Assembly: GCA_942493095.1 (NCBI GenBank)
Contig: OW818675.1
Location: 1,170,001 to 1,202,000 of the forward strand
Source: Candidatus Electronema halotolerans
Lineage (GTDB): Bacteria; Desulfobacterota; Desulfobulbia; Desulfobulbales; Desulfobulbaceae
DNA: 32,000 bases
Direction of reading: 5' to 3'
The translations under genes were made by a program, and so were the position numbers. Of the stretch, positions 2,197 through 29,133 are shown piece after piece. How positions within the stretch are numbered: the first letter of the stretch is position 1; each line of letters opens with the position of its first letter. A model generated the notes under the pieces. That model was not told the origin of the DNA. It saw only the letters and a list, made by a program, of their open reading frames with translations, and made no database searches.

Positions 2197-3477
2197 ATGG
2201 CAAAGCACGCTACGCCTTTGTTGGACGAACTGGAGAAAGGCCCGTGGCCAAGTTTCGTCAGTGACATGAAGCGCCAAGCTGAGACCCACCCGGAATGCTG
2301 GGACATACTCGGCCAGCTGGAGCTTTCCTACAAGGACAAAATCACCCATTGGAAGCACGGCGGCATTGTCGGCGTGTTCGGTTACGGCGGCGGCATTGTC
2401 GGACGTTATTCTGACGTGCCCAAGCAGTTCCCCGGTGTTGAGCATTTTCACACCGTCCGCATCGCCCAGCCTTCGGGTCTGTACTACTCGACCAAGAACC
2501 TGCGCGCTCTGATGGACCTGTGGGACAAGTATGGTTCCGGCATGACCAACATGCACGGCTCCACCGGCGACATGATTTTCCTCGGCACCCGGACCGAGAA
2601 TCTGGAGCCGCTGTTCTGGGATCTGACCCATGATCTGGATCAGGATCTGGGCGGTTCCGGCTCCAACCTGCGCACCCCGTCCTGCTGCTTGGGCGAGTCG
2701 CGCTGCGAGTGGTCCTGCTACGACACCCAGGATGTCTGCTACCACCTGACCATGCACTATCAGGACGAAATCCATCGTCCTGCCTTCCCTTACAAGTTCA
2801 AGTTCAAATTCTCCGGCTGCCCGAATGACTGCGTGGCCGCCATTGCCCGTTCTGACTTTGCTCTGATCGGCACATGGAAAGATGACATCCGCATTGATCA
2901 GGCGGCAGTCAAGGAGTACATTGCAGGCAATTATCCTTCCAACGGCGGCGCACATGCTGGCCGCGACTGGGGCCCGTTCGACATTCAGAAAGAGGTCATT
3001 GATCTCTGCCCGACTGGCTGCATGTGGATGGAAGGCGGTGAGCTGAAAATCGACAACAGCGAATGCACCCGCTGCATGCACTGCATCAATGTCCTGCCCC
3101 GCGCTTTGAAACCGGGCAAAGAAAAGGGCGCGACCATCTGCGTCGGCGCCAAAGCTCCGATTCTGGACGGCGCGCAGTTCGCCACCATGGTCATTCCGTT
3201 CATCGAAGTCTCCAAAGAGAACGAGTACGAAAATCTGATCGACGTGATCGAGCAGATTTGGGACTGGTGGATGGAAGTGGGCAAGAACCGCGAGCGCGTC
3301 GGCGAGACCATGCAGCGCATTGGTCTGCCCAACTTCCTGCGCGTGATGGAGGTTGAGGCTCTGCCGCAGCATGTGAAGGAGCCGCGTTCTAACCCCTATG
3401 TCTTCTGGAAAGAGGAAGAAGTCGAGGGTGGTTGGGAGCGCGATGTTGACGCATTCCGCAAAAAACATGCCGCCTGA
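2197..3477 (+). CDS. dsrA: Dissimilatory sulfite reductase alpha subunit
   Basis: 426 aa. The N-terminus [23 protein letters not shown] is typical of DsrA. It has the siroheme/Fe-S Cys clusters ([15 protein letters not shown]; [10 protein letters not shown]) and a ferredoxin insert (CPTGCMW...[12 protein letters not shown]). Strong RBS. Confidence 0.95.
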
Positions 3478-3536
3478 TGGCCGTTGTCCGGTTAAGCCTG
3501 AATTTGAACTATACAACCATATAAGGAGACTTCACA

Positions 3537-4676
3537 ATGGGTTACGATCCAAATAATCCGATGGAAGGCCGGATCACCGACTTGGGGCCGCGCTCGTACA
3601 CCGAAATGCTGCCGCCGGTCATTGCGGCCAACAAGGGCAAATGGGACTACCATGAGATTGTCAAGCCGGGTGTCCTGCTCCATGTGAGCGAGAGCGGAGC
3701 GGAGTGCTACACAGTCCGCGTTGGCTCCCCGCGTCTGGTGTCAATTGAGTATGTCCGCGAAATCTGTGACATTGCTGACAAGCACTGCGAGGGCTACCTG
3801 CGTTTCACCACCCGCAACAACGTCGAGTTCATGGTGGACAGCAAGGCCAAGTGCGATGCCCTGATCGAGGACCTCAAGACCAAGAGCAGCAAGTTCCCGA
3901 TTGGCGGCACCGGCGCTTCTGTGACCAACATTGTTCACACCCAGGGCTGGGTGCATTGCCATACCCCGGCCACCGACGCTTCCGGCCCGGTCAAGGCGGT
4001 CATGGATGACCTGTTCGAGTATTTCGGCTCCATGATCCTGCCTGCGCAGGTGCGCATTGCTCTGGCCTGCTGCCTGAACATGTGCGGCGCAGTGCATGCC
4101 TCTGACATCGCCATCCTCGGCATCCACCGCAAGCCGCCGATGGTCGACCACAACCGCATCACCGGCGTGTGCGAGATTCCGCTGGCCATTGCCGCCTGTC
4201 CGCTGGGCGCGGTCAAACCAGCCAAGGCCAAAGTGGGTGATCAGGAAGTCAAGTCTGTGCAGGTCAATGCCGAGCGCTGCATGTTCTGCGGCAACTGCTA
4301 CACCATGTGCCCGGCCATGCCGCTGGCAGATCCTGATGGTGACGGCATCGCCATTCTCGTGGGCGGCAAGGTTTCCAATGCCAAGTCCGCGCCCAAGTTC
4401 TCCAAATTGGTCGTGCCCTTCCTGCCCAACACCCCGCCGCGCTGGCCGGAGACGGTTGCGGTCATCCGCAAGATCGTTGAGGTCTATGCCAAGGATGCGC
4501 GCAAGTACGAGCGCATCGGCGAGTGGGCGGAGCGCATTGGCTGGGAGAAGTTCTTTGAGAAGTGCGAAATCCCCTTCACCGACAAGTCCATTGACGACTA
4601 CCGTCTGGCTTATGATACTTGGCGGACCACCACCCAGTTCAAGTACACCAAAGCCACAGAAGCTTACACCAAGTAA
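3537..4676 (+). CDS. dsrB: Dissimilatory sulfite reductase beta subunit
   Basis: 379 aa. Motifs [24 protein letters not shown] and the ferredoxin domain CPLGAV...[21 protein letters not shown] at 3523-3528. Lies directly after dsrA. Confidence 0.95.
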
Positions 4677-4995: not shown

Positions 4996-5030
4996 GTACA
5001 ACACCTTTTGTCAGCAGTCCTGATCCAGCA

Positions 5031-5059
5031 AAGCGGGAGCCGCAAGGTTTCCGCTTTTT
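5031..5059 (+). terminator. Rho-independent terminator of the dsrABD unit
   Basis: An 11-bp stem (5031-5041 / 5046-5056, including G-U pairs) closes a GCAA (GNRA) tetraloop and runs into TTTTT (5055-5059). Confidence 0.7.
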
Positions 5060-5077
5060 CATGTCCATGACCAACAG

Positions 5078-6130
5078 ATGAAGCAGAAAATTCTGCAAAC
5101 CGCATCTTCCGTGATGATTGTCCTGCTGCTCTCTTTCTTGGCAGGAGAGACAACAGTGCGCATCTTTCATTTTTTTCATCCGCTGTTCATTTTCTATGAT
5201 GATTCGTATAACCGGTTTCGCGGCAAGCCATTTGCCCCGGATTTTGATTTCAAACTGAATTCGCTTGGTTTCAAAGATACAGAATTTTCCCAGCAAAAGC
5301 ACAGCAGGTTCCGTATTGCAGCCATAGGCGACTCTTTTTCCTACGGCGTTGTTCCGTACAAAAACAATTATCTGACCCTGCTTGAATCCCAGCTCAAAGG
5401 CCAAGGCCTTGATGCTGAAGTCTGCAATTTGGGCATTCCCAGCACTGGGCCAAAAGACTATCTTGCCGTCCTTGAGCAGGAAGGTCTGCGGCTTCACCCG
5501 GACATGGTCCTGCTTTCATTTTTTATTGGCAATGATTTTCCTGAGAGTGGCAGAAAGAAGAAATGGCATGAATATTCCTACTTTGCTTCACTGCTTCGTT
5601 ATCTCTTGGCGGTCAGACCTAAATACGAAGGCCAGATTGTGCATGGAGCAGGCACCTATTGTGATGACTGTCCCAGCTTTGCTGCCAGCACGTACTTGGA
5701 TATTGAAAAAACACGGAGCAGCATTTACTTGACAGATAATGTCGAGTTTCCTGCCCTGCTTGCCAAGGCTCTCGATTATCTGGCCCAAATTCAGGATATT
5801 TGCGCAGAAAAAAATATTGCCCTGTCCGTGGTGCTCATTCCTGACGAAGTGCAAATCAATGCCAAGCTGCAAGAGCAGGTGCGGACGCAGTTTGCCACAG
5901 GAAAAAGCGGCTGGAACATCCTCCTGCCAAATCAGCAGCTTCAGGCCGGACTCAAGAAGATGCGCATTGATTTCCTTGATCTCTATCCTGCTTTTGCGGA
6001 GCAGGCCAAGACGAAACAGCTCTACAGACCACGCGACACGCATTGGAACATTGCCGGAAATCAGCTTGCCGCTGACCTGCTCCAGCAGCATCTTCATTCC
6101 ATACTGACTTTTCTGCCTAAAAATATATAG
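5078..6130 (+). CDS. Membrane-anchored SGNH/GDSL-family hydrolase (AlgJ/AlgX-like esterase or O-acyltransferase fold)
   Basis: 350 aa. N-terminal TM helix (SSVMIVLLLSFLAG), block I IAAIGDSFSYG, block V DTHWNIAGNQLAA. GC is clearly lower than in the neighbours. Confidence 0.65.
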   Translation: MKQKILQTASSVMIVLLLSFLAGETTVRIFHFFHPLFIFYDDSYNRFRGKPFAPDFDFKLNSLGFKDTEFSQQKHSRFRIAAIGDSFSYGVVPYKNNYLTLLESQLKGQGLDAEVCNLGIPSTGPKDYLAVLEQEGLRLHPDMVLLSFFIGNDFPESGRKKKWHEYSYFASLLRYLLAVRPKYEGQIVHGAGTYCDDCPSFAASTYLDIEKTRSSIYLTDNVEFPALLAKALDYLAQIQDICAEKNIALSVVLIPDEVQINAKLQEQVRTQFATGKSGWNILLPNQQLQAGLKKMRIDFLDLYPAFAEQAKTKQLYRPRDTHWNIAGNQLAADLLQQHLHSILTFLPKNI

Positions 6131-6202
6131 ATGTCAGGCCGCTGATCAACAATGTCGAACATAAACAGCCTGATTTGCCATCATAACCGTCGGTCTGAAC
6201 TG

Positions 6203-6241
6203 TTGACAGCATTTTGCCTCGTATGTATAATGTAATTACAT
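6203..6241 (+). promoter_or_regulatory. Consensus sigma70 promoter (TTGACA-17-TATAAT) with an overlapping 12-bp perfect palindrome ATGTAATTACAT (candidate MazE/MazEF operator)
   Basis: TTGACA at 6203-6208, TATAAT at 6226-6231, palindrome at 6230-6241. The mazE ATG follows at 6263. Confidence 0.7.
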
Positions 6242-6262
6242 AAACTGAGACAAGAGGTTGAT

Positions 6263-6517
6263 ATGGCTACATTGATCAGAATAGGAAATTCCCAAGGAGT
6301 GCGGATACCCAAGACGCTTGTCGAACAGGCTAGGCTGCGGGACAGCGAACTGGTCTTCAAAGTGCTTGCAGAGGGGCTGCTGATCCAGCCGGTCAGAAAA
6401 GCCAGACAAGGCTGGAAGGAGCAGTTTGAGCAGGCCCTGCAAGATCGAGAACATTGTGAGCTTGATCAGGAATGGCTGGATGCTCCTCTGGTTTCAGAGG
6501 AGGAATGGGACTGGTGA
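6263..6517 (+). CDS. mazE: AbrB/MazE/SpoVT-family antitoxin
   Basis: 84 aa. The N-terminus ATLIRIGNSQGVRIPKTLVEQARL is the swapped-hairpin AbrB/MazE fold signature. It has an acidic C-terminal tail and overlaps the downstream toxin gene. Confidence 0.85.
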   Translation: MATLIRIGNSQGVRIPKTLVEQARLRDSELVFKVLAEGLLIQPVRKARQGWKEQFEQALQDREHCELDQEWLDAPLVSEEEWDW

Positions 6518-6840
6518 AGCCGGAAATCCATCGATTTGAAATATGGCTGGTCCAGCTCGATCCGACCAAAGGTTCAGAAATCAAGAAAACCAGACCTTGT
6601 GTTGTCATTGCACCAGATGAAATGTCTGTTCTGCATACAGTCATTGTTGCGCCCATGACTTCCAAGGGTTTTGCTTTTCCAAGCAGAGTGCAATGCGTAT
6701 TTCAGGGGAAAAAAGGTCTGATCCTGCTTGACCAGATCAGGACGGTTGACAAGGCACGGCTGATGCAAAAGCTGGGCTTGCTTTCCAAAACCACACAGGT
6801 GAAATTGACCAACTGCTTGCAGGAAATTTTTGCATTTTAA
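6505..6840 (+). CDS. mazF: MazF/PemK-family mRNA interferase toxin
   Basis: [29 protein letters not shown]...VIVAPMTSK...[13 protein letters not shown] is a canonical MazF/PemK pattern. ATG 6505 overlaps the mazE end by 13 nt; the ORF-track start at 6472 is probably too long. Confidence 0.85.
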
Positions 6841-6875
6841 AAGACAACAAGCTACTATTACAGGAACGAAAAGCA

Positions 6876-7340
6876 ATGGCGAATTTCATTGAAGGCAATC
6901 TGCACGGACAGGGATGTAAAATCGGCATCGTTGTTTCCCGCTTCAACTCCTTCATTTCCGAAAAACTGCTGGAAGGGGCACTGGACATTCTGGTGCGCTC
7001 CGGGGTCAAGGATGAGGACATTGACGTGGCGCGGGTGCCGGGCGCGTTTGAAATCCCTTTAGTCACCCAGAAGATGGCCCGGTCCAAAAAATACGACGCA
7101 GTCATCTGTCTGGGCGTGGTCATCCGGGGCGCGACGCCGCATTTTGATTTTGTCGCCAATGAGGTTGCCAAGGGCAGTGCCCAGGTCATGCTCGACAGCG
7201 GCATTCCGGTGCTCTTCGGGGTGCTAACCACGGAATCCATTGAGCAGGCGATTGAGCGGGCCGGCAGCAAGGCAGGCAACAAGGGCGCGGATGTGGCGGT
7301 TGCGGCCTTGGAAATGATCAGCCTTATCAATCAGCTCTAA
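6876..7340 (+). CDS. ribH: 6,7-dimethyl-8-ribityllumazine synthase
   Basis: 154 aa. [23 protein letters not shown]...VPGAFEIP...[21 protein letters not shown] is typical RibH, followed by nusB as in many bacteria. Confidence 0.9.
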
Positions 7341-8545: not shown

Positions 8546-9457
8546 TTGTCCTCGTTTCAAGAACAGGCACTGCGGCACCGCGAAGAGCATCTGACCAAGC
8601 TGGACACAGCCCCCTTCCCTGCTGAGATTGCCACGAAAATTCGCCGTTATGGCGCGCCAATGGGCGCAGTGCTCGAACATCATGCCTGCTTGGACCGCTG
8701 CATGAACCGGCTCCAGCAGCTCATGGCAGAGGCGGAAGGCAGGGGCGGCGTGCTGGCTGCGGGCACAACCGTGCTGGCGGACCGGCTCAGTCAGTCGCAA
8801 GGCCGTTTTGCCCGCCACTGGCACGCTCCGCCCGGCGGCCTCTGGCTGACAGTTGCCTGGCCGGATATCCTCTTGCCGGAGTTCAGCCGTTTGCTGCCCT
8901 TTGCCGCCGGACTGGCCTGCTGCCGCACCGTGCGCCTTTACGGTCTGGATGCCCGTCTCAAGTGGGTCAATGATCTGCTGATCAACGGGCGAAAAATCGC
9001 GGGCATCCTCTGCACCAGCGTGGTTCGGCCCAGCCACGAGCGGTATCATCTGCTTGGCATTGGCCTCAATGCCAACAATCAAGACTTTCCTCACGACTTG
9101 CAGGGCAGAGCTGTCAGCATGGCTGATGCGCTCGGACAGCCAGTTGATTTGGCCGAATTGGCAGGCAGACTGCTGGCCGAGTTGGGCTGGGCAGTGGGGC
9201 TGCTTCATTATGATGAGGAGCTGGCCCTGCACGGGAGAACTTCCTGCGAGGAAGGCTATGCCCCGCTGCTGCTGGCGGCGTGGCGGCAGTTGAGCGACAC
9301 AACGAGCCGCCGGATTGTCTATGGCTTTGATGTCCAGCAGCAGCCGCTCTGCCAAGCAACGGCAGTAGATATTGACTCCTGCGGCGGCCTGATCATGGAA
9401 CTGGAAGACGGCAGCCGAACAGTGGAATATTCTGGGGAAATAGTCTATCTGAGCTGA
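8546..9457 (+). CDS. birA: Biotin--protein ligase family protein (group I-like, no recognisable N-terminal HTH), divergent biotin loop
   Basis: ...SQGRFARHWHAPPGGLWLTV... replaces the GRGRxGRxW loop. KWVNDLLINGRKIAGIL matches KWPNDL..gKK.aGIL. The start is uncertain (TTG 8546; the next ATG is at 8660). Confidence 0.65.
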   Translation: MSSFQEQALRHREEHLTKLDTAPFPAEIATKIRRYGAPMGAVLEHHACLDRCMNRLQQLMAEAEGRGGVLAAGTTVLADRLSQSQGRFARHWHAPPGGLWLTVAWPDILLPEFSRLLPFAAGLACCRTVRLYGLDARLKWVNDLLINGRKIAGILCTSVVRPSHERYHLLGIGLNANNQDFPHDLQGRAVSMADALGQPVDLAELAGRLLAELGWAVGLLHYDEELALHGRTSCEEGYAPLLLAAWRQLSDTTSRRIVYGFDVQQQPLCQATAVDIDSCGGLIMELEDGSRTVEYSGEIVYLS

Positions 9458-10903: not shown

Positions 10904-11619
10904 GGCTGCTCCGGCGGGGCGATGAACATATAGCCTGCGCTGCGCACGGTCTGGATAAAGCGGGGCTGGCGCGGGTTTTCGCCGAGCTTGCGCCGCAGGG
11001 AGGAGATATGCACATCCACAGACCGGTCAAAGACATCATAATCCCGGCCAGCAACCGCCTCAAGCAGGTGATCGCGGGTCAGCACCCGGCCAGCGGCATT
11101 GGCCAGCACAGCGAGCAGGTCGTATTCCAGCGGAGTCAGGGTCAGCACTTCCCCGCCGAGCCGCACAGTGCGGGAATTCTGCTCAATCTGCAAGTCGGTG
11201 AAGCAGAGCACTGGCTCTCCTGCCTCGCTCCGGGTGGTCTCCGCAGCCTGCCAGCGGCGGGTCACAGCCCGGAGACGGGCGAGCAGCTCACGGGAGGAGA
11301 AGGTTTTCGGCAGATAGTCATCCGCGCCCATTTCCAAGCCAACAATGCGGTCGGTCTCCTCGCCCCGTGCGGTGAGCATCAGCACCGGCACGGTTGACAC
11401 CTGCCTGAGCTGTTTCAGGACCTCAAAGCCGTCCATCTGCGGCAGCATCACATCAAGAATCACGGCCTGATACTCCTTCTGCCGGAACAGCTCCAGTCCA
11501 TCCGGGCCGTTGTACGCCGCCTCGACCTCGTAGCCCATCGGCTCCAGGTAATCTCCCACCAAGCGGCAGAGCTTCCGGTCATCGTCAATCATGAGGATTT
11601 TCATGGTCTCGGCTTTCAT
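10900..11619 (-). CDS. OmpR/PhoB-family response regulator (receiver + winged-helix)
   Basis: MKILMIDDD...VILDVMLPQMDG...LMLTARGEE...GADDYLPKTFSSRELLARL...; C-terminus LTPLEYDLLAVL...IQTVRSAGYMF. ATG 11619 has AAGGAG 5 nt upstream and overlaps the ROCO stop (ATGA). Confidence 0.9.
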   Translation of the reverse strand: MKAETMKILMIDDDRKLCRLVGDYLEPMGYEVEAAYNGPDGLELFRQKEYQAVILDVMLPQMDGFEVLKQLRQVSTVPVLMLTARGEETDRIVGLEMGADDYLPKTFSSRELLARLRAVTRRWQAAETTRSEAGEPVLCFTDLQIEQNSRTVRLGGEVLTLTPLEYDLLAVLANAAGRVLTRDHLLEAVAGRDYDVFDRSVDVHISSLRRKLGENPRQPRFIQTVRSAGYMFIAPPEQP

Positions 11620-13817
11620 TGCCGCTCCTTCCGCCCGCTCAATATCTTCCAAAGCTGTTTGAGGTCGATGCCGAAACCTGAGAAACTTGGCTTCAGCATA
11701 AGCAGTTCCTTCTCATCCATCTGCGCTTTCATCATCCGCAGCAGTTCAAGCATCTCATCGTCTCTGCTCGGCTCCACCAAGCCAAGGAGTTCCTTTACAC
11801 TGTAGCACTTCTTTGAGCCGTCTGGAATAAAGACATCTGAACCTGCCTCAGCAAGATTGATCAAGGTCTCGTAATCGGCACTGCGCTGCGGGTCATCAGG
11901 CATGGGAATGCGCTCGCTGACATCAAGATGCTTAAAGGTGTTGTTGATCTCGCGCAAGGAGAACCAGAGGAAGTGGAGATATTCCTTGCGGCGCGGGCCA
12001 TTCACCCAGAGGTTGATACGCCGGGCCTCGGTATCCGCCCGCACTACGGCCTCAGAGCCGCTTTCCCGGTCTTGCAGCACTGCGCCAGTGCGCCAACTCA
12101 GAGCATCCTTGATCTGCTGATGCACCTTGACCATGAAGCGCGGCATGACCGAAGGCGGCAGGAAGTCATGATAATGGAGGACAAACTGGAGCGCGTCCGC
12201 CTCGTCGAAAGTAAAGTCCGGCTCAACCACACCAAGAAGTTGCGGGATCAGCACCCGCTCGCTGTCCAGCTCCCAGCACAGCTCAAACTTCTTCATCAGC
12301 TTGATGATGAAAACATGAGTCTCTGGCGGGTAGGAGTGCGGCTCACCCGGCTGCTGGCGCAGGATGTCCTTCAGGCTTTCCAAACGAAGAATGCCTTTGT
12401 CCGCCGCCACCTGCCCGCTGTTGATAATTTTATAGACCGCGTTGGTCACCCAGACCGGGTCAAGGACGTGGGTGGCATCAAGGATGAAATCTTTGAAATG
12501 AACGGCCACGCCCAGATCGTGGAGAAGGTCAACCAGCGTCTCTTGGCTGGCCTGCTCAGTGATGCCCGCATCGACGCAGATGCTGCCATACTCGCGGCTG
12601 CTGATATAGGACCTGCCGAGCCGGGCAATCTGCTCTTTGACCAGAAACCAGCTCCCCGGCCAGCGGATGCCGATCATCTCCACCCGCGCCAGTTCTTTAA
12701 GTAGGGTCTCGCGGAGACGGCTAATGCCATCGCCGTCAGCGCAGGAGGTTCGGAAAAAGCCTTTGATTGATGGATACTTTGCTTGCAGGAAAGGCCGGTT
12801 GATGTCAAAGGAGGGGTTGGCATCCTGCTTGTTGAGCACCACCAGCACGGGTGAGTCGCCGCCAAAGCTCTCGATATGCTGGAGCCAGTATTCGGGCCGC
12901 TCGTCCTTGCGACCATCGAGCACGAGGACATACAGGCTGCGCTTGGACAGAAAGAACTGGTGCGTGGCGTGCATGATCTCCTGGCCGCCAAAGTCCCAGA
13001 TGTTGACCTTGATTGGCTGGCCGCCCGCAGTTACGTCCCAGCCCCGGATGCTGATGCCGTGCGTGGTGTCTTCGTGCTGGTCAAACTCCTCGCCGAGGAG
13101 CTTCTTGACCAGCGATGTCTTGCCTGCTGCGCCGTCACCGACAAGGAGCACCTTTACTTGGTTGAGGGGCTGGTCTTCTGCTTGGAGATTGGCGAAATAC
13201 TGGCGGATGGCTTCGATGCCTTGACGGGCGATCTCTATCGGCGGCGAGGTGAGGGGGTTGCCGCTGAGGTAAAGTTCCGTCAGTTTAGTGAGCTGGCCGA
13301 TTTCTGACGGTAGGGCGCTGAGTTGGTTTGTGTCGAGGTTAAGCAACGTCAGACTATTGAGTTGACTAATCTCAGGCGGCAGACTGTTCAACCGGTTGGC
13401 GTAAAGGTTAAGCTTCGTCAGGTTCGTGAGCTGGCAGATTTCCAGCGGCAGGGCAGTGAGCTGGTTGCTGCTGAGGAGAAGCACTGTCAGGCTGGTTAGC
13501 TGGCAGAATTCAGGCGGCAGGGTAGCGAGCTGGTTGTTGTTGAGTTCAAGCCTCGTCAAGTTCGTAAGCTGGAACAGCTCTGGCGGCAGGGTAGTAAGTC
13601 GATTACCTCTAAGATTAAGTTCTTGCAACTTAGTTAATTGGCAGATTTCCTGCGGCAAGGAAGTCAGACGATTACCTTGAAGCTCAAGGCATGTTAAATT
13701 GGTTAACTGGCCAATCTCCGGCGGCAGCTCGATAAGTTGCTTGCCACTCAAATAAAGACTGGTTGTCCCCTTCTCCTTAGCCTTGCGTATTACCTCAAGC
13801 AGCTCTTCATTCGTCAT
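11616..13817 (-). CDS. ROCO-family protein: LRR - Roc (Ras-of-complex GTPase) - COR
   Basis: Eight 23-aa LRRs (LxxLxLxxNxLxxLPxEIxQ). G1 LLVGDGAAGKTSL, G3 WDFGGQE, G4 LNKQD. COR-like LDPVWVTNAVYKIINS. Start set at ATG 13817 (AGGTG 8 nt upstream; the N-terminus NEELLEVIRKAKEKGTTSLYLSG is typical). The track start at 13934 runs through a non-coding repeat array. Confidence 0.85.
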   Translation of the reverse strand: MTNEELLEVIRKAKEKGTTSLYLSGKQLIELPPEIGQLTNLTCLELQGNRLTSLPQEICQLTKLQELNLRGNRLTTLPPELFQLTNLTRLELNNNQLATLPPEFCQLTSLTVLLLSSNQLTALPLEICQLTNLTKLNLYANRLNSLPPEISQLNSLTLLNLDTNQLSALPSEIGQLTKLTELYLSGNPLTSPPIEIARQGIEAIRQYFANLQAEDQPLNQVKVLLVGDGAAGKTSLVKKLLGEEFDQHEDTTHGISIRGWDVTAGGQPIKVNIWDFGGQEIMHATHQFFLSKRSLYVLVLDGRKDERPEYWLQHIESFGGDSPVLVVLNKQDANPSFDINRPFLQAKYPSIKGFFRTSCADGDGISRLRETLLKELARVEMIGIRWPGSWFLVKEQIARLGRSYISSREYGSICVDAGITEQASQETLVDLLHDLGVAVHFKDFILDATHVLDPVWVTNAVYKIINSGQVAADKGILRLESLKDILRQQPGEPHSYPPETHVFIIKLMKKFELCWELDSERVLIPQLLGVVEPDFTFDEADALQFVLHYHDFLPPSVMPRFMVKVHQQIKDALSWRTGAVLQDRESGSEAVVRADTEARRINLWVNGPRRKEYLHFLWFSLREINNTFKHLDVSERIPMPDDPQRSADYETLINLAEAGSDVFIPDGSKKCYSVKELLGLVEPSRDDEMLELLRMMKAQMDEKELLMLKPSFSGFGIDLKQLWKILSGRKERQ
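13224..13760 (-). repeat. Coding tandem repeats: 8 leucine-rich repeats of 69 nt each within the ROCO gene
   Basis: The peptide units LTNLTCLELQGNRLTSLPQEICQ / LTKLQELNLRGNRLTTLPPELFQ / ... repeat head to tail. Confidence 0.9.
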
Positions 13818-13859
13818 TGTCTGCGCACCTGTGTTTGTTGGTTGTATAGCATTCGGAGT

Positions 13860-13974
13860 CAGCATGCTGACTCGGCAAGTACCAGCATGGTGGTAAGCCA
13901 AGTACCAGCATGGTGGTAAGCTAAGTTGCAGCATGCTGGAACGACGGGTTGCAGCATAGTGACTCCGTCGCCGT
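13860..13974. repeat. Five-unit tandem array with an exact 23-bp period, each unit starting with a CAGCAT(G/A)(C/G)TG palindromic core
   Basis: Cores start at 13860, 13883, 13906, 13929 and 13952 (cagcatgctg, cagcatggtg, cagcatggtg, cagcatgctg, cagcatagtg). Units 2 and 3 are near-identical (cagcatggtggtaagc[c/t]aagt). The array lies 43-157 nt upstream of the ROCO start codon. Confidence 0.9.
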
Positions 13975-19417: not shown

Positions 19418-20371
19418 TTACTGGGCCGCAGGCGACTCCAAATACCGGAACAAATCCGCCTTGGGTGACAAAACCAGCGAGCTGTTGCGGCTGAGGATGT
19501 TCTGGTAGCTCTCCAGACTTTTCTGGAACGAATAAAATTCCGCGTTGCTGCTGTAGGTTTCGCCGTAGAGCCGGGAAGCCTCGGCATCTGCCTGGCCCCG
19601 GATTTCCGTGGATTCACGCTCGGCTTCAGAAATAATCTCCTTCAGCTCCCGCTCGACCTTGCCAAGGATTTCCGCCTTGCGGCCTTCGCCAAGCGAACGC
19701 TTTTCCGCCGCAATCCGCTTCCGCTCCGAAATCATCCGGGCATAGACCTTTTGCCGCACTGAATCAATGTAATTGACCCGCTTGAACATCACGTCGATCA
19801 GCTCAATGCCGTATTTGAGGGCATCTTGGGATGCCTGTTTAAGCACCATTTCACTGATCTTGTCACGGCCTTGGATCGGCGGCCTGGTCATTTCCTTGTC
19901 AGAACGCGTTTCCACGACATATTCAGAACTCCAGTCTGAGGAGCGGATGATTTCGATCAGATCATTCTGGTTGACCAAGTCACGGACCGCGCCGTTGATG
20001 ATGTCATCAAGCAGAGTCTGAGCGCGGGTCTCATTGCCTGCGGCTTGGAGGAAGCGGAGCGCGTCCTTGATCCGCCAGCGGGCCGTGTTGTCCATGTAGA
20101 TGAAGGTCTTGTCATTGGTGGGAATCTGGTTGGGGTCGCCGTCCCAGATCAGAATCCGTTTTTCAAAGAGCTGGACCCGCTGAAGAAAAGGCATTTTGAT
20201 TTTCAGCCCGGCCTCGGTGACTGGCTCGCCCACCGGCGCGCCGAACTGGGTGATTACGGCTTGCTCCCCTTCGGGCAAAACGTAAAAACCGTCCAGCACC
20301 ATAAGAATCAGGACAGCGGTCAGCAGCAGGTAGAGAATTTTCAGAACCGAGGCTTTTTGCGTCTGCTCCAT
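19418..20371 (-). CDS. hflC: SPFH/band-7 protein HflC
   Basis: 317 aa. N-terminal TM helix, an SPFH domain and a coiled-coil region. It lies immediately after hflK with a 1-nt gap. Confidence 0.85.
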   Translation of the reverse strand: MEQTQKASVLKILYLLLTAVLILMVLDGFYVLPEGEQAVITQFGAPVGEPVTEAGLKIKMPFLQRVQLFEKRILIWDGDPNQIPTNDKTFIYMDNTARWRIKDALRFLQAAGNETRAQTLLDDIINGAVRDLVNQNDLIEIIRSSDWSSEYVVETRSDKEMTRPPIQGRDKISEMVLKQASQDALKYGIELIDVMFKRVNYIDSVRQKVYARMISERKRIAAEKRSLGEGRKAEILGKVERELKEIISEAERESTEIRGQADAEASRLYGETYSSNAEFYSFQKSLESYQNILSRNSSLVLSPKADLFRYLESPAAQ

Positions 20372-22532: not shown

Positions 22533-22609
22533 TCCGCACACAGTAAGCGCGGCAGAGCAAATGGTCAAGAGGAGGCATTGTTCGGCTGCCGCTTCTGAGG
22601 CGGGTAATA

Positions 22610-23249
22610 TCAAAGCCCGCCGCCTTTCCTCGGCAGGACAATTTTCAGACAGTCCTCGCTGACCTCAAAGACCGGTTCCACGCCGTTGTGCTGCCGCATC
22701 AGAGGAATGACCTTGGTGCGCACGCCCATTCCCGGTGCGTCAACATAGCCGTAATCGCGCAAAATCTCCATGATCAGCGGATTGCGGGGAGAACGCTGCC
22801 CGGCGATCATGCGCCAGCGGCCTGCGAGCGGGCCATCCAGCACAGTGTCAAGCCGGGCCTGATATTCTTTGTCCGCACGCACCGGCAAAAATCATGAGCC
22901 GCAGTCCAGCCTAGGGCAAATAGCGGCGGGGCCGGATGCCGAAGCAGACCAGCCCGGCGATGGAGCAGACCTTGTTGCCCAGTCCGTCTTCAGCCATCAG
23001 GCCCAGTCCGAGCAGGCGTTCGATCCACTGCTCCCGGCTGCCCGGCACGTCCGGGTCTTCAATGATGGAGGCCAGATAAAAGTTGAGCCGGTCCAAGTCC
23101 AGCGAGTCTATTGAAGTTCCGGCGACAGGCAGGGTTTCCATATTCACAATCTCTTTTGCCAGCTGTTCCGGGTGGATGTCATCCCGTTTGAACTCCACGC
23201 CGGAGTTCTCGCCGTTGCGGATGATTTCAAGGAGTTCTGCTGTGCGCAT
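22610..23249 (-). pseudogene. Decayed COG2865-type regulator (AlbA_2/Schlafen N-domain ... HATPase_c_4 region), frameshifted and internally deleted
   Basis: The N-piece (23249-22911) reads MRTAELLEIIRNGENSGVEFKRDD...LAKEIV then jumps to ...DLDRLNFYL...AGLVCFGIRPRRYLP*. The C-piece (22888-22610), in another frame, reads ...RNPLIMEILRDYGYVDAPGMGVRTKVIPLM.... Most of the AlbA_2 core and the terminal wHTH are missing. Confidence 0.55.
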
Positions 23250-23423
23250 GAGTGATCTCTCTTGGTCGGTGATGGAAATTCCACATTTTTCCAGTTTGTT
23301 GCGTTCTTTATAATACTGCGCCGCCTCTTGTGCGACAACGAAAAAGACACGTTGCTCTGCCTGCTGCTCCATGATAGGATGGCTTGCCGCCGCCGGGTGG
23401 TCAGTTTGAGATGCAGATGAAAC

Positions 23424-23452
23424 TTGTTTGCACAAATTTTCTGCTGTATCAT
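23424..23452 (+). promoter_or_regulatory. Possible promoter of the ABC-3C operon (TTGTTT-17-TATCAT)
   Basis: Hexamers at 23424-23429 and 23447-23452, about 30 nt upstream of ATG 23484. No SD is visible. Confidence 0.3.
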
Positions 23453-23483
23453 AAACAGATAAGCCGCTTCGACAGCTATTGTC

Positions 23484-24386
23484 ATGAACCTACAACAAGC
23501 CTACTACGAACAGAAATTTGAGAATGCCTTTCTGCGGGCAAAAGGAGACGAGTTCCAGACATTCTTTGAACGCCTGATGGGTTTGGCATGTAAGGCGGAT
23601 TTCATGGCCTGCCGTCCTTGGGGTAATATCGGCGACCGCAAGAACGACGGTTTCCTGAAGTCAGAGCGGCGGCTGTTTCAAGTATATGCGCCAAATGCGA
23701 TGGAAGCAAAGAAAGCCATCGACAAAATCACAGAAGATTTTGAAGGTGCAAAGGTTCATTGGGGCAAGCATTTCGACAAATGGGTCTTTGTTCACAACGC
23801 TTATGACGGATTGCCGCCGCATGTTCACGAAGTCATCCTTGAGTTTGAACGAGTCAATCCGGGAATTGTTTTGGAGCCTTGGGGACTGGAGGAGCTGCGG
23901 CTGATTTTCCGTCTTCTTTCAGAAGAAGACTGCATTTCTTGGTTTGGCTTGGCTCCAACGGAAGAAACAAAAGCCAAGCTCGGTTTCAAAGAACTCCAAG
24001 TTGTCTTTGAAATCTTGGCCAGCAATGCGGCACCTCCCAGTTTCACTGTCCAGCCAGTTCCGCAAGGCAAAATTGAAGCCAATGCGCTGTCTGAAAGCGT
24101 GAGAGAATTGATCAAAAGCGGCATGTCGAAAAGCTGGTTGGTTTCAGATTTTCTTGAAAAATGGCATGATGAAACCTTGGGCGAACGTTTGGCAGTCGCT
24201 TTCCGCGAGGAATACAAACGGCGGCGGGGAACAATGCCGCCCAACCAGATATTCTCTGAACTCCAGACATGGGCAGGCGGCAGAGAGCGCGGCACACCAG
24301 AACATGAAATGGCAGTGCTGACGGTGCTGGCCTATTACTTTGAGCGGTGCGATATTTTTGAAGAACCAAGAACAGTGCGGCCATGA
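23484..24386 (+). CDS. ABC-three-component (ABC-3C / Lamassu-like) effector component: N-terminal Mrr/PD-(D/E)xK-like module + helical C-terminal domain
   Basis: 300 aa. EFQTFFERLMGL...WGNIGDRKNDGF...RLFQVYAP resembles the Mrr-type E...GDxGxDG...QxK core, with Tyr in the Lys position. The C-terminus VLAYYFERCDIFEEP resembles the ABC-3C C-terminal domain. ATGA overlap with the next gene. Confidence 0.6.
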   Translation: MNLQQAYYEQKFENAFLRAKGDEFQTFFERLMGLACKADFMACRPWGNIGDRKNDGFLKSERRLFQVYAPNAMEAKKAIDKITEDFEGAKVHWGKHFDKWVFVHNAYDGLPPHVHEVILEFERVNPGIVLEPWGLEELRLIFRLLSEEDCISWFGLAPTEETKAKLGFKELQVVFEILASNAAPPSFTVQPVPQGKIEANALSESVRELIKSGMSKSWLVSDFLEKWHDETLGERLAVAFREEYKRRRGTMPPNQIFSELQTWAGGRERGTPEHEMAVLTVLAYYFERCDIFEEPRTVRP

Positions 24387-24628
24387 TTCTTCCTTCCAAG
24401 CATCTTTCTCAAGAACGCGCCTTGCTCTCTGTCGGAGCAAAGCTGCTTGTCTGTCTTTCCAAACCTAAGACGGTCTCGGCTCTGTGGGAAGAAATCTCCC
24501 GGCCTGTTGAGAAGCAGGTCAAGAAGCCAGCCTTGCGATATGATGCCTATGTTCTCACGCTTGATCTTTTGTTTATGATCGGAGCGATTGAACTTCAAGA
24601 CGGCTTGTTGAGGCGCAAGAAACCATGA
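24383..24628 (+). CDS. ABC-three-component system middle component (small helical/wHTH-like protein)
   Basis: 81 aa. ...LLSVGAKLLVCLSKPKTVSALWEEI...YDAYVLTLDLLFMIGAIE. Sandwiched by ATGA overlaps at 24383-24386 and 24625-24628. Confidence 0.6.
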   Translation: MILPSKHLSQERALLSVGAKLLVCLSKPKTVSALWEEISRPVEKQVKKPALRYDAYVLTLDLLFMIGAIELQDGLLRRKKP

Positions 24629-26337
24629 TTCACCGCATTTTCAGCAGCCTGCCAACCTTCAAGGAACTGGAATTTCATTCCGGTCTGAATATCCTCATCG
24701 CGCAGAAGGAAGCTGGAGCCACAGACAAGCAGACTCGGAACCGGGCAGGAAAGACCAGTCTGATCGAGATCATTCATTTTCTTGCTGGGGCGAATGTTGA
24801 GAAAGATTCCATTTTTCGTTCTGAGGCACTCAAGAACGAATCGTTCAGCATGACTTTCGACTTTGGCGGCGAATTAGTCACCGCAAGACGTTCCGGCAAG
24901 GAAGCAGCTAAACTGCATCTGGAAGGAGCCAATTTTCCCAACGGAAAGACGCAGCTTTCCAACAAAGATTGGATTTCTGTGCTCGGCGGCAAGATGTTTG
25001 GGCTGAATAACCTTGAAGGCAGTCCGCCCTCTTTCCGGCAGCTTTTTCCGTACTTTGTCCGCCGTCAGAACAGCAATGGCTTCATAGAACCAGAAAAACA
25101 TACTAAGATGCAAAAGCCGGGCGATGTGCAGACAGCTCTGCTTTACCTGCTTGATCTTGACTGGCAGATTGCTGGAGAATGGCAGCAAGTGCGTGATCAG
25201 GAAAAAACTTTGAAAGAGCTGAAAAAGGCGGCTGGCAGCGGTGCCTTCGACGGTTTCATTGGCAAAGCATCTGAACTTCGCACAGACCTGACAGTCGCCG
25301 AGGCGAAACTGAAAGAAATGCAGGAGCAGCTGGGCAAATTCCGCGTCCTGCCGCAATATGCCGAACTGGAGGCCGAAGCTGACCAGCTCACCAAGCAGAT
25401 CAACGAGCTGGCCAATGCCAATGTGGCTGATGCCGCAGCCATCCGCGATTTGGAGGCTGCCATGCGTTCTGAAGCTCCGCCGCCGCTTGATGAACTGGAG
25501 AGCATTTACGCCGAAGCTGGCGTTTCCTTGCCCGGACTTGCCCTGAAACGGTATGAAGAGGTGCGGGCATTCCATCAGTCGGTCATCCGCAACCGCCGCG
25601 ACTATCTTGCCGATGAGCTGGAGGCTGCCAAGCAGCGGGTGAAGGCGCGGGAGAAGCAGAAACAGGCTTTTGATGAACGTCAGTCTGTGGTGATGAATCT
25701 GCTGCAAAGCTGCGGTGCCCTTGACCAGTTTTCCAAATTGCAAGAAGAAGCCGCCCGGCAGAAAAGTGCAGTGGAAGCCTTGCGCCATCGTTTTGCCGCT
25801 GCCGAACAGTTGGAAGAGACCAAGAATGAACTGCATCTGGAGCGCAACCGGCTTGAACAGCGGCTCCGTCGGGACTTTGCGGAACAAAACGACCGCCTTG
25901 CCGATGCCATTCTTGCCTTTGAAGCAACCTCAAAGCGTCTCTATGAATCCGCAGGCAAGATGAATGTCGATCCAACCTCGAACGGCCCCAAATTTGAATT
26001 TCCCATGCAGGGTTCCCGCAGCAAGGGCATTAAGAATATGCAGATATTCTGCTTTGACATGATGCTCATGCGGCTCTGCGTCAAGCGCGGCATCGGCCCC
26101 GGTTTTCTTGTCCATGACAGCCACCTGTTCGACGGCGTGGATGGCCGCCAGCTTGTCAGCGCCCTCAAGGTTGGTGCGGAAACAGCAGAGCAGCTCGGTT
26201 TTCAGTATATCGTCACCATGAACGAGGACGATGCCTTTAAAGAGACTGCTGACGGCTTTGCTGTGCGGCAGCATGTCCTCCCGGTTGTTCTCACTGATGC
26301 GAAGGAAGACGGCGGTCTGTTCGGCTGCCGCTTCTGA
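24625..26337 (+). CDS. DUF2326-type ABC ATPase with an SMC/Rad50-like coiled-coil insert (ABC-3C / LmuB-like core)
   Basis: 570 aa. N-terminus IHRIFSS..FKELEFHSGLNILIA...NRAGKTSLIEIIHFL (Walker A). About 250 aa of heptad-rich Glu/Lys/Ala/Leu sequence. C-terminus QGSRSKG (signature-like) and GFLVHDSHLFDGVD (Walker B/D-loop). Confidence 0.75.
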   Translation: MIHRIFSSLPTFKELEFHSGLNILIAQKEAGATDKQTRNRAGKTSLIEIIHFLAGANVEKDSIFRSEALKNESFSMTFDFGGELVTARRSGKEAAKLHLEGANFPNGKTQLSNKDWISVLGGKMFGLNNLEGSPPSFRQLFPYFVRRQNSNGFIEPEKHTKMQKPGDVQTALLYLLDLDWQIAGEWQQVRDQEKTLKELKKAAGSGAFDGFIGKASELRTDLTVAEAKLKEMQEQLGKFRVLPQYAELEAEADQLTKQINELANANVADAAAIRDLEAAMRSEAPPPLDELESIYAEAGVSLPGLALKRYEEVRAFHQSVIRNRRDYLADELEAAKQRVKAREKQKQAFDERQSVVMNLLQSCGALDQFSKLQEEAARQKSAVEALRHRFAAAEQLEETKNELHLERNRLEQRLRRDFAEQNDRLADAILAFEATSKRLYESAGKMNVDPTSNGPKFEFPMQGSRSKGIKNMQIFCFDMMLMRLCVKRGIGPGFLVHDSHLFDGVDGRQLVSALKVGAETAEQLGFQYIVTMNEDDAFKETADGFAVRQHVLPVVLTDAKEDGGLFGCRF

Positions 26338-26352
26338 AGCGGAATCCTCCCC

Positions 26353-29133
26353 ATGCCCCCACTAAGCTGGAACGAAATCAAGTCCCGTGCGGTCGCCTTT
26401 TCCCGCGACTGGGCTGAGGAAGCCTCTGAGAACGCTGAGGCCAAGACCTTCTGGAACGAGTTCTTCCATATCTTCGGCATCAGTCGCCGCAAGATCGCCA
26501 GCTTTGAGCAGCGGGTCAAGAAGCTCGACAGCCGCGACGGCTACATTGACTTGCTCTGGAAAGGAATGCTGCTCATTGAGCACAAGTCGCGGGGCGGCGA
26601 CCTTGACCGTGCGCACGAGCAGGCCCTCGGCTATTTCCCCGGCCTCAAGGAGCGCGAGCTGCCGCGCTACATTCTGGTGTGCGACTTTGCCCGCTTCCGC
26701 CTCTACGATCTGGAGGAGGACAGCCGCCATGACTTCACGCTCACGGAGTTGCACAAGAACGTGCGGCTTTTCGGCTTCATAGCCGGTTATCAGACGCACG
26801 CCCTGCGCGAGCAGGACCCGGTCAATATCAAGGCGGCAGAGCGCATGGGCCGTCTGCACGACCAGCTCAAGGAGGCGGGCTATCTTGGCCAGCCGCTGGA
26901 AGTCTGCCTTGTCCGCCTGCTCTTCTGCCTCTTTGCCGAGGACACCGGCATCTTTGAGCGGCAGCAGTTTCAGGAGCTGATTGAGCAGCGCACCCGCGAG
27001 GACGGCAGCGATCTTGGCCCGCAGCTTGCCCAGCTTTTCCAGACCCTGAACTTGCCGGAGAGCCGCCGCTACAAGAATCTGGATGAGCAGCTTGCCGCCT
27101 TTCCTTTCATCAACGGCAGGCTTTTTGAGGAATCTCTGCCCATTGCCGCCTTTGATACGGCCATGCGCCAGACCCTGCTGGACTGCTGCGGATTGGACTG
27201 GTCGCGCATCTCGCCCGCCATTTTTGGTTCGTTGTTCCAATCCATTATGGACAAGCAGGCGCGTCGCAACCTTGGCGCGCACTACACCAGCGAGAGCAAC
27301 ATTCTCAAGCTGATTAAACCGCTCTTTCTCGACCGGCTGCGGGAGGAATTTGACAAGATCAGGAGCAGGAAGACGGGCCGGGACAAGCTGCTGGCCGAGT
27401 TCCATAAGAAGCTGCGCAGCCTGACCTTTCTTGATCCGGCCTGTGGCTGCGGCAACTTCTTGGTCATTGCCTACCGCGAGCTGCGTCTGCTGGAATTGGA
27501 CATCCTGCGTGAGCTGCTCAAGAACCAGAGGGGCCAGCAGAGTTTGGATGTGCGCGGCCTGCTCCGCTTGGATGTTGACCAGTTCTTCGGCATTGAGCTG
27601 GAGGAGTTTCCGGCCCAGATCGCCCAAGTTGCCCTCTGGCTGACTGACCATCAGATGAACCAGCGCGTTTCCGAGGAGTTCGGCCTCTACTTTGTCCGCA
27701 TTCCGCTCAAGACCAGCCCGCACATCATCTGCGCCAATGCCCTGCGCATGGACTGGAACGAGCTGATTCCGGCGGAGCGGCTCAGTTGCATCATGGGCAA
27801 TCCGCCGTTTGTGGGGAAAAAGGAGCAATCCGCCGAGCAGAAAGCTGATTTTGTTCCTGTCATGAAAGGAATCCATAGTGCCGGTCTGTTAGATTTCGTC
27901 ACCGCTTGGTATGTGAAAGCAGTCCGAATGATTCAAAGCAGTTCAATCCGCTGCGCCTTTGTCTCCACCAACTCCATCTGCCAAGGCGAGCAGGTCGGGG
28001 TTTTGTGGAGCTGGCTGCTGGCGCAGGGCATCAAGATTTTCTTTGCTCACCGCACCTTTCAGTGGAGCAATGAGGCGCGGGGCAAGGCAGCGGTGCATTG
28101 TGTGATTGTCGGCTTTGCTTATGAGGACATCAGCCCGAAATGGCTCTTTGAGTATGAGGACATCAAAAGTGAGCCTCAGCGCATCGCGGCGGAGAACATC
28201 AATCCATATCTTGTGAATGCGTCGAACGTGGTTCTTCAAAGAAGATCAAAGCCCATTTGTAACGTCCCGGAAATCAACAAAGGCAGCGAGGCAACGGACT
28301 TTGGGCATCTTTTTTTGAACGTCGAAGAAAAGGCATTTCTGGAAAAAGAGAATCCGCTTGCAAGCAGGTGGATACGCCAAGTCTTTGGCTCAAATGAATT
28401 CATCAACAATGAAGAAAGATTCTGTCTCTGGCTTGTTGGAATTTCTCCGGCAGAGCTGAAGACCATGCCTTTAGTCATGGAACGTGTCGCCAAAGTCAGA
28501 CAGGAACGGCTAAACAGCAAAAAAGACCGTACAAAAGAATGGGCTGATCAGCCGTTTTTGTTCAGCGAGAATAGGCAGCCGGAAAGCAATTATCTTGCAG
28601 TACCGAAAGTTTCTTCAGAGAGAAGGCCGTATTTGCCGATTGGCTATTTGAAGCCTGAACAGATAGCAACAGGAAGTCTGCAAGTTATTCCTTTCGCAGA
28701 GTTGTATCATTTTGGCATACTGAGTTCTATTATGCACATGGCATGGATGCGGCATGTCTGCGGTCGCCTTGAAAGCCGTTACCAATATTCCAACAGTATT
28801 GTTTACAACAACTTCCCTTGGCCGGACAATCCCTCTGCCAAGCAGCGGCAGGCGGTGGAAGACAAGGCGCAGGCTGTTTTGGATGCCCGCGCTCAGTTCC
28901 CGGACTCCTCGCTCGCTGATCTCTACGACCCGCTGACCATGCCGCCCGCGCTGCTCAAGGCGCACCGCGCTTTGGACAAGGCTGTGGATGCCGCCTACGG
29001 CAAAACCGACTTTGCCGCTGAGGCCGAGCGCGTCGCTTTCCTCTTTGATCTCTACCAGAAATACACGGCCAGCCTTCTGCCAGCAGCGGCAAAGAAGAAA
29101 ACATCGGGCCGACGGCGCAGGGGCAGTTCATGA
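26353..29133 (+). CDS. MmeI-family type IIL (IIG) single-chain restriction-modification enzyme (nuclease + gamma-class N6-adenine methyltransferase + TRD)
   Basis: 926 aa. N-terminus FWNEFFHIFG...GYIDLLWKGMLLIEHKSRG gives D66-X9-E76-X-K78, the same spacing as the MmeI nuclease motif as I recall it. Motif I FLDPACGCGNFLV, motif IV GNPPFVGKK. Size and order match MmeI. It starts 15 nt after the ABC ATPase stop. Confidence 0.85.
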   Translation: MPPLSWNEIKSRAVAFSRDWAEEASENAEAKTFWNEFFHIFGISRRKIASFEQRVKKLDSRDGYIDLLWKGMLLIEHKSRGGDLDRAHEQALGYFPGLKERELPRYILVCDFARFRLYDLEEDSRHDFTLTELHKNVRLFGFIAGYQTHALREQDPVNIKAAERMGRLHDQLKEAGYLGQPLEVCLVRLLFCLFAEDTGIFERQQFQELIEQRTREDGSDLGPQLAQLFQTLNLPESRRYKNLDEQLAAFPFINGRLFEESLPIAAFDTAMRQTLLDCCGLDWSRISPAIFGSLFQSIMDKQARRNLGAHYTSESNILKLIKPLFLDRLREEFDKIRSRKTGRDKLLAEFHKKLRSLTFLDPACGCGNFLVIAYRELRLLELDILRELLKNQRGQQSLDVRGLLRLDVDQFFGIELEEFPAQIAQVALWLTDHQMNQRVSEEFGLYFVRIPLKTSPHIICANALRMDWNELIPAERLSCIMGNPPFVGKKEQSAEQKADFVPVMKGIHSAGLLDFVTAWYVKAVRMIQSSSIRCAFVSTNSICQGEQVGVLWSWLLAQGIKIFFAHRTFQWSNEARGKAAVHCVIVGFAYEDISPKWLFEYEDIKSEPQRIAAENINPYLVNASNVVLQRRSKPICNVPEINKGSEATDFGHLFLNVEEKAFLEKENPLASRWIRQVFGSNEFINNEERFCLWLVGISPAELKTMPLVMERVAKVRQERLNSKKDRTKEWADQPFLFSENRQPESNYLAVPKVSSERRPYLPIGYLKPEQIATGSLQVIPFAELYHFGILSSIMHMAWMRHVCGRLESRYQYSNSIVYNNFPWPDNPSAKQRQAVEDKAQAVLDARAQFPDSSLADLYDPLTMPPALLKAHRALDKAVDAAYGKTDFAAEAERVAFLFDLYQKYTASLLPAAAKKKTSGRRRRGSS

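Follow-up and report, generated by a model that had tools for sequence, protein, structure and literature searches.

The genome of the cable bacterium Candidatus Electronema halotolerans (Desulfobulbaceae) contains, within a stretch of 32,000 nucleotides (assembly GCA_942493095.1, contig OW818675.1, positions 1,170,001 to 1,202,000 of the forward strand; hereafter the window), four co-directional genes in which a three-gene ABC-3C cassette, including an ATP-binding cassette (ABC) ATPase, is followed at operon-like spacing by a bona fide MmeI-family Type IIL restriction-modification (RM) gene. The open reading frames (ORFs) are exactly those of the original prediction, which had described a single-chain RM enzyme hard-wired to an SMC-like, DNA-sensing system. 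The explanation favoured here, with moderate confidence, is a composite and lineage-specific defence operon of two self-sufficient modules that are co-expressed and co-inherited, and that are not bound to each other by an obligate biochemical dependence. Of the two readings offered in the original prediction, layered defence and a functional coupling of the modules, layered defence is the one that fits best. What is conserved, judged against ~170 related loci, is an operon-like unit of a narrow Electronema lineage, neither hard-wired nor without precedent as a concept.

The cassette and the MmeI-like enzyme

Pfam searches identified CTD10 in the first gene (6.8e-19, aa 173-293), MC6 in the second (3e-14), and DUF2326 (1.9e-41) together with a CTD10 insert (5e-18, aa 272-397) in the third. 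The hallmarks of ABC-3C systems are present, namely the triad of an effector with a C-terminal domain (CTD), a middle component and an ABC ATPase, and the occurrence of the same CTD family, CTD10, in the effector and inside the ATPase; this classification relies on Pfam names and on later papers citing the original ABC-3C work. Using PADLOC, the first gene was assigned to PDC-M68A (PDLC04772, 1.8e-24) and the third to PDC-M68B (PDLC04774, 1.2e-152, full length), so that the two markers by which membership of PDC-M68 is recognised are both present. LmuB models matched the ATPase weakly, with 5.7e-10 and 37 bits versus 508 bits for PDC-M68B. The ATPase carries the Walker A motif AGKT (aa 41-44) and a deviant Walker B motif, LVHD-S-H (aa 495-500, positions 26107-26124), which has no catalytic glutamate and is invariant across 19 homologues. 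This deviant motif recalls the E-to-Q Walker B of LmuB.

The head of the effector gave no match in Pfam and no sequence match in the PDB, and NCBIfam supplied no name. In the AlphaFold2 model, residues 1-165 (pLDDT ~85) are arranged as alpha-alpha-beta-beta-beta-alpha-beta-alpha-beta, and the top Foldseek neighbours of this region were EcoT38I, EcoO109I and XPF/Hef, which have the restriction-endonuclease fold; all of these matches were weak. Judged from the model, the N-terminal alpha/beta domain probably adopts a restriction-endonuclease-like fold. Action as a nuclease can be proposed only tentatively, because the lysine expected in the (D/E)xK motif is replaced by tyrosine (Q66-V-Y68) and the Foldseek matches all fell below threshold (best E 0.037).

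MmeI-type enzymes are complete RM systems in one polypeptide, and the family is characterised by lone-strand methylation and by cleavage ~20/18 nt from an asymmetric site. In the fourth gene, Pfam recognised every one of the five MmeI domains (MmeI_N, _hel, _Mtase, _TRD and _C), with E values of 1e-24 to 1e-91 and far above the gathering score; they correspond to the N-terminal nuclease, helical spacer, gamma-class N6A methyltransferase, TRD and C-terminal domain of the family. The gene was called REase_MTase_IIG by PADLOC with 1224 bits. Against the crystallised MmeI (PDB 5HR4), phmmer aligned residues 4-920 with residues 3-918 at 1169 bits. The nuclease and methyltransferase motifs had been described as intact, and their location and the alignment to MmeI bear this out. 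The nuclease motif D66-X9-E76-H-K78 lies at 26548-26586, and the methylase motifs are DPACGCGNF (motif I, 27433-27459) and NPPF (motif IV, 27799-27810). D66, E76 and K78 align with D70, E80 and K82 of MmeI (E76-H-K78 with E80-M-K82), whose mutation abolishes cleavage (PMC4833311).

One segment of the enzyme, the target recognition domain (TRD, ~28160-28730), gave no nucleotide alignment to the Electronema orthologues (blastn gap), which suggests that the recognition sequence is probably different. The segment has a G+C content of 0.45-0.51, versus ~0.60 in the rest of the gene, and resembles a swapped specificity domain.

Assignment of the fourth gene to the nuclease-less BREX methylase PglX was considered and rejected, since PglX models match its methylase core only at 1e-4 to 1e-5 and its nuclease motif is intact. 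No PglZ, BrxC or BrxL was found among the window genes with Pfam and PADLOC, and the earlier exclusion of BREX holds.

Junctions, recurrence and relics

The coordinates of the locus are collected in Table 1. Both junctions inside the cassette, between the effector gene and MC6 and between MC6 and the ATPase, are 4-nt ATGA overlaps. The spacer between the ATPase and MmeI-like genes contains no Shine-Dalgarno sequence, a terminator scan found nothing at this junction, and a consensus scan found no promoter-like site in 26000-26353. In these respects the original prediction was right, but its statement that no hairpin is present was not, as a stem-loop occupies the last ATPase codons. This stem-loop has no U-tract and folds no better than shuffled sequences (z = 0.6), and it is not a terminator. 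Upstream of the effector gene, the leader is conserved among the MmeI-linked loci and partly also in locus L169 (upstream alignment); from its sequence it is the candidate promoter of the whole four-gene cluster.

Table 1. Positions of the four genes, their junction elements and the relics at the left edge of the island
Feature	Position	Strand	Size or content	Basis and remarks
Gene A, effector	23484-24386	+	300 aa	ORF list
MC6 middle component	24383-24628	+	81 aa	ORF list; start overlaps stop of gene A (ATGA)
DUF2326 ABC ATPase	24625-26337	+	570 aa	ORF list
MmeI-like gene	26353-29133	+	926 aa	ORF list
ATPase-MmeI spacer agcggaatcctcccc	26338-26352	+	15 nt, C-rich	
Stem-loop	26304-26335	+	13 bp, G+C-rich	Folding; in last ATPase codons, ends at stop codon
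Leader, promoter-like TTGTTT-17 nt-TATCAT at 23424-23452	23424-23483	+		Upstream alignment
Relic of 26318-26342	22579-22603	+	25 nt, 24/25 identical	Repeat search; exact 20-mer twice in window
Decayed SLFN_AlbA_2/HATPase_c_4 gene	22625-23249	-	Fragments aa 1-40, 142-260, 326-408	tblastn of L164 protein
MmeI 5' relic, weak	23385-23422	+	Codons ~45-56	Alignment; just 5' of cassette leader

The G+C content at third codon positions is 0.52-0.60 in the triad, 0.70 in the MmeI-like gene and 0.70-0.77 in host genes, and the lower value of the triad makes it look like the more recent arrival. Housekeeping genes surround the island: DsrAB-like genes, Band_7, ParA and rhomboid precede it, and genes for a TPR protein and a SpoU methylase follow. 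Gene calls of the window were reproduced in independent assemblies, and the effector is 100% identical in sequence to a Ca. Electronema halotolerans protein. An Rfam search of the window gave no match, and no tRNA that could serve as an integration site was found in it.

To follow the recurrence of the link from the cassette side, 80 loci of species-representative genomes with ATPase homologues at 61-79% identity were sampled. Of these, 78 keep the A-MC6-ATPase triad, while a contig end truncates the remaining two. In only 2/80 loci, both from Ca. Electronema, does an MmeI homologue lie 3' of the ATPase. Closer relatives add the four-gene loci L164, L165 and L166, with the MmeI gene cut by the contig end in the latter two. 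Altogether, the same four-gene order occurs in six loci, the window and five other Electronema-type loci, so the adjacency is not unique to this genome; uniqueness would have spoken against the original prediction. The gap between ATPase and MmeI genes ranges from 6 to 18 nt across the six; conservation covers the flanking coding ends but not the sequence of the spacer. At ~80% nucleotide identity, these loci occupy at least four genomic contexts, and the window and L002 hold the same blocks in permuted order. It follows from these contexts and the permuted order that the four genes move as a group with an AlbA_2 gene, described below.

Sampling from the MmeI side covered 80 metagenomic loci whose homologues have 58-70% identity, 62 of them with at least 600 bp upstream, and the triad stood beside the MmeI homologue in none of the 80. 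For the co-occurrence and synteny check of DUF2326 systems against MmeI-like genes that the original prediction had proposed, these counts show a narrow link that recurs in Electronema. Close cable-bacterial relatives of the cassette also occur without MmeI: in L169 the triad lies between LepA and UPF0102, in L162 (Electrothrix scaldis) between an ABC transporter and a GAF gene, and in L168 it stands alone between housekeeping genes in a similar way. The triad is found on 43 plasmids, and in the three that were inspected no RM gene is attached to it; on one of the three, a Hymenobacter plasmid, an N-6 DNA methylase lies ~4 kb from the triad on the opposite strand. No ATPase homologue was found in the phage collection.

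In one Electronema lineage, represented by two independent assemblies, the effector gene is a pseudogene with a lost start and W100 changed to a stop (L166 3014-3919 and L167 168-1073). This lineage still has intact MC6 and ATPase genes, and its MmeI gene is intact as far as it is visible. Since cassettes stand alone, MmeI homologues lack the triad in 80/80 loci and the effector decays independently, the two modules are separable. The description as hard-wired does not survive these data: the MmeI link is limited to one Electronema subclade, sister cassettes have no MmeI, and one lineage has lost its effector.

Several relics lie around the cassette. The 25-nt relic corresponds to the final 20 nt of the ATPase gene, stop codon included, plus the 5 nt that follow. 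Its position, at the left edge of the island, is between the start of the rhomboid gene and a decayed AlbA_2 gene, and the two copies form a direct repeat that brackets the AlbA_2 relic, gene A, MC6 and the ATPase. The decayed gene is intact in L164 (7481-8716, minus strand, 411 aa, SLFN_AlbA_2/HATPase_c_4 by Pfam), and a called 90-aa ORF in the decayed region gave a weak HATPase_c_4 match. This gene is divergent and upstream in the window and L164, and convergent and downstream of MmeI in L001 and L002. The minus-strand ORFs 22911-23435 and 23144-23485 were considered as a regulator and rejected, as they are fragments of the decayed AlbA_2/HATPase_c_4 gene.

Immediately 5' of the cassette leader, ~80 nt derive from MmeI codons ~30-56, clearly in L001 and L166 and more weakly in the window, L164 and L165. 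The window at 26443-26479 matches L001 at 8710-8746 with 89% identity (blastn), and further relics of the MmeI 5' end are located at L166 2857-2961, L164 7334-7447 and L003 760-665 (those in L164 and L166 by tblastn). In L164, MmeI codons 1-38 (95% identity) also appear beyond the AlbA_2 gene. L002 contains, 6 kb away at 19422-19709, a 95-aa in-frame mini-MmeI that joins the N-terminal 38 aa to the C-terminal ~60 aa and directly follows a 1600-aa ORF without a Pfam match.

As read from sequence, these relics suggest repeated duplication, deletion or recombination at cable-bacterial MmeI loci. Duplicated pieces of the ATPase/MmeI junction flank the cassette, which fits a history in which it inserted into a resident MmeI locus or recombined with one, before duplications and deletions took place. 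Together with the permuted order, the relics may reflect tandem duplication or the single-crossover insertion of a circular intermediate. Interpretation of the repeats as att-like sites of a site-specific element was rejected, as no integrase lies nearby and the repeats are relics of genes.

Restriction partners of the cassette and competing explanations

Relatives of the cassette are attached to RM systems of several kinds. In 11 loci, a fused HsdM-HsdS gene (N6_Mtase and Methylase_S, ~830 aa) ends at the effector start codon, with an ATGA overlap in 10 loci and a 4-nt gap in L022, and an HsdR-like gene lies further 5' in eight of the 11. In L008, L010, L016 and L054 the triad follows an EcoR124-type HsdR gene at a distance of 7-19 nt and is itself followed by HsdS/HsdM. 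The genes that precede it in L006 and L011 encode an Eco57I-type IIG enzyme and an SMC_N ATPase. RM genes were found within ~4 kb in 23/45 loci of the window's cassette clade versus 0/35 in the Pseudomonadota sister clade. On the neighbour-joining tree of the ATPase, the attachments are spread over at least five separate clades, of which the MmeI link is one, and attachment to several RM types is a trait of this cassette clade. The window cassette itself lies ahead of a Type IIL gene, and no subunits of a multi-gene RM, BREX or DISARM system surround it.

The embedding of this family has been noted before. Payne, Hughes, Fineran and Jackson nominated PDC-M68 by 'guilt-by-embedding' through its location in type I RM, BREX or DISARM operons, and in their list the cassette, CAS_00212, has a count of 32 (Payne et al. 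2024 bioRxiv). As explanations of embedding they discussed backup, co-regulation, co-transfer and a 'genomic sink', and they named PrrC/EcoprrI and PARIS as earlier examples (Payne et al. 2024 bioRxiv). The novelty claimed for the unit in the original prediction is thus upheld for the MmeI-type partner, but not for the association of the cassette with RM systems in general.

Other genes accompany the triad in these loci. A KilA-N protein of ~276 aa is located between the HsdR-like and fused HsdM-S genes of the triad-bearing type I operons in L017, L018, L026 and L027. In the Pseudomonadota clade (L045-L080), a conserved pair of unannotatable proteins (~420 and ~352 aa) lies 3' of the triad in 8-9 loci, for example L067 5487-6749 and L060 13050-14108. 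Other loci of that clade have, after the triad, a 260-aa protein with DUF4917, or Gabija-like AAA_15/TOPRIM and UvrD genes. The genes 3' of the triad in this clade may be further partner modules.

A mechanistic coupling would make the four genes one immune unit, in which the ABC-3C cassette is triggered by double-strand ends made by restriction, or acts as a guard that fires when anti-restriction proteins inhibit the enzyme. Attachment in at least five tree clades, often with translationally coupled junctions, would agree with this, as would the tight junction that is kept in six loci while the sequence of the spacer changes. In Lamassu, the complexes bind directly to DNA ends, which activate them (bioRxiv 10.1101/2025.06.23.660979; 10.1101/2025.03.14.643221), and ABC-ATPase defences triggered by anti-restriction proteins are documented for PrrC/Stp and PARIS/Ocr (Payne et al. 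2024 bioRxiv). However, the RM partners of the clade belong to unrelated structural types (type I with fused M-S, EcoR124-type type I, Eco57I-type IIG and MmeI-type IIL), and this heterogeneity disfavours a specific protein-protein guard, although sensing of generic DNA ends would still be compatible with it. Furthermore, about half of the clade, all 35 sister-clade loci and the three inspected plasmids have no adjacent RM genes, the closest relatives L169 and L162 have no MmeI, the cassette is missing from all 80 sampled MmeI homologue loci outside Electronema, and the effector of L166/L167 decays independently. Considering these data, such a coupling is regarded as unlikely.

At the opposite end, the arrangement could be a neutral juxtaposition in a defence 'sink', with a promoter of the MmeI gene inside the ATPase 3' end and a shared history that reflects linkage only. 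A co-directional unrelated ORF, of housekeeping or toxin-antitoxin type among others, ends at most 40 nt upstream in 10/60 MmeI homologues taken from the metagenomic loci, encoding GlnE, AspRS, a lipoyl ligase (LplA/B), a penicillin-binding protein, HTH, ParE, Fic or an N4/N6 methylase, and for this reason a short gap without a Shine-Dalgarno sequence is weak operon evidence in the MmeI family. The modules also differ in third-position composition, the relics and permuted orders indicate a recombination-prone locus, and the genomic-sink explanation has been discussed (Payne et al. 2024 bioRxiv). Against neutrality, the junction of 6-18 nt has been kept in six loci at ~80% nucleotide identity and in at least four contexts, no promoter-like or terminator-like site is found at it, and effector genes of the same clade overlap type I genes by ATGA in 10 loci. 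Neutral juxtaposition is therefore given a low probability.

The composite operon of two self-sufficient modules is thus preferred, and the following course of events can be proposed for it. In an ancestor of the Ca. Electronema group, a mobile ABC-3C cassette resembling type II Lamassu, with effector, MC6 adaptor and DUF2326 SMC/Rad50-like ATPase, would have inserted into the 5' end of a resident MmeI gene or beside it. Afterwards, the four genes and the AlbA_2/HATPase_c_4 gene would have been inherited, rearranged and moved together. The four genes would most likely be transcribed from the cassette's own conserved leader. The MmeI orthologue would methylate its own asymmetric site and cut unmodified DNA ~20 bp away. 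By analogy with Lamassu, the complex of ATPase and middle component may hold the effector inactive via its CTD; in that system, LmuB and LmuC keep LmuA sequestered by way of its CTD until they bind DNA ends, whereupon it is released (bioRxiv 10.1101/2025.06.23.660979; 10.1101/2025.03.14.643221). Once DNA ends, replication intermediates or another cue of infection had been sensed, the effector would be released, oligomerise and attack DNA, leading to abortive infection. The coupling of the modules would be regulatory and evolutionary, joining first-line restriction with a second-line abortive system.

A number of observations weigh against this preferred explanation. Co-transcription is argued from spacing and from the lack of a terminator or promoter match, and the spacing argument is weakened by the 10/60 homologues that closely trail unrelated genes. 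The promoter in the leader falls below the threshold of the consensus scan and is a poor match to the sigma-70 consensus. The effector has its tyrosine in place of the motif lysine and only sub-threshold structural neighbours, and the defence function of PDC-M68 is itself a prediction, for the whole family as well as for this member. The contrast of 23/45 with 0/35 loci corresponds to a Fisher p of ~1e-7, a value that is inflated by the relatedness of the loci. Finally, repeated attachment to RM genes could mean more than co-regulation.

This last point leads to a broader and speculative idea, which is considered improbable at present: the DUF2326/CTD10/MC6 cassette may be a general 'restriction-coupled Lamassu', triggered by double-strand ends on incoming DNA or by the failure of restriction. 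If so, it would explain the independent fusions of one clade to type I, Eco57I-type IIG and MmeI-type IIL systems. Its minimal form would then be the four-gene operon of Electronema, with one RM polypeptide and three sensor and effector proteins.

The families of both modules are already known, and the embedding of defence systems in RM loci has been published. What the locus adds is a single-chain Type IIL enzyme that is apparently read through from an ABC-3C cassette, which would be a compact natural construct, and the finding that one cassette clade is joined to at least four restriction architectures, often at junctions where the stop codon overlaps the next start. Four genes suffice to ask whether embedding serves co-regulation and co-transfer, or whether Lamassu-like sensors use the products or the failure of restriction. 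The locus also provides a first experimental handle on PDC-M68.

Related systems and other genes of the window

Compared with PDC-M68 as it was nominated, the window cassette agrees in its A and B marker proteins and in the attachment or embedding of its relatives in RM systems. It differs in its partner, a single-chain MmeI-type IIL enzyme located downstream, whereas embedding in type I RM, BREX or DISARM operons was what defined the candidate. Type II Lamassu (LmuA-LmuC-LmuB; DdmABC) shares the order of effector, small middle component and SMC/Rad50-like ATPase, a CTD common to effector and ATPase, the deviant Walker B and the expected logic of sequestration and release. In contrast to Lamassu, the window ATPase is of the DUF2326/YydD branch (570 aa) with its weak LmuB match, and the effector head is not Cap4/DUF4297. 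The window has CTD10 and MC6, types that differ from those of the studied CTD7/CTD12 and MC3 systems.

The fourth gene resembles MmeI of Methylophilus methylotrophus (PDB 5HR4) along its full length, with the five domains, the catalytic D...ExK and motifs I and IV. Unlike 80/80 sampled homologues, it stands behind an ABC-3C cassette, and its TRD is divergent. PrrC-EcoprrI and PARIS are alike in that an ABC-type ATPase second-line system is genetically tied to RM, and they are the precedent for a backup or guard. The window cassette has neither an anticodon-nuclease nor a TOPRIM domain, is not confined to hsd loci and has heterogeneous partners. By Pfam and PADLOC, neither the NTPase-anticodon nuclease nor the hsd embedding of a PrrC-type guard is found, and the partner in the window is not a type I system.

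Elsewhere in the window, two adjacent NIR_SIR (DsrAB-like) proteins are encoded at 2197-4676 on the plus strand, fitting a sulfur-cycling member of the Desulfobulbaceae. After them, a stretch of low G+C content (0.475) at 5000-7000 contains an SGNH/AlgX-like hydrolase. On the minus strand, at 11616-13934, a ROCO protein of 772 aa (leucine-rich repeats, Roc GTPase, COR-A/COR-B) adjoins a sigma-54 activator and a histidine kinase.

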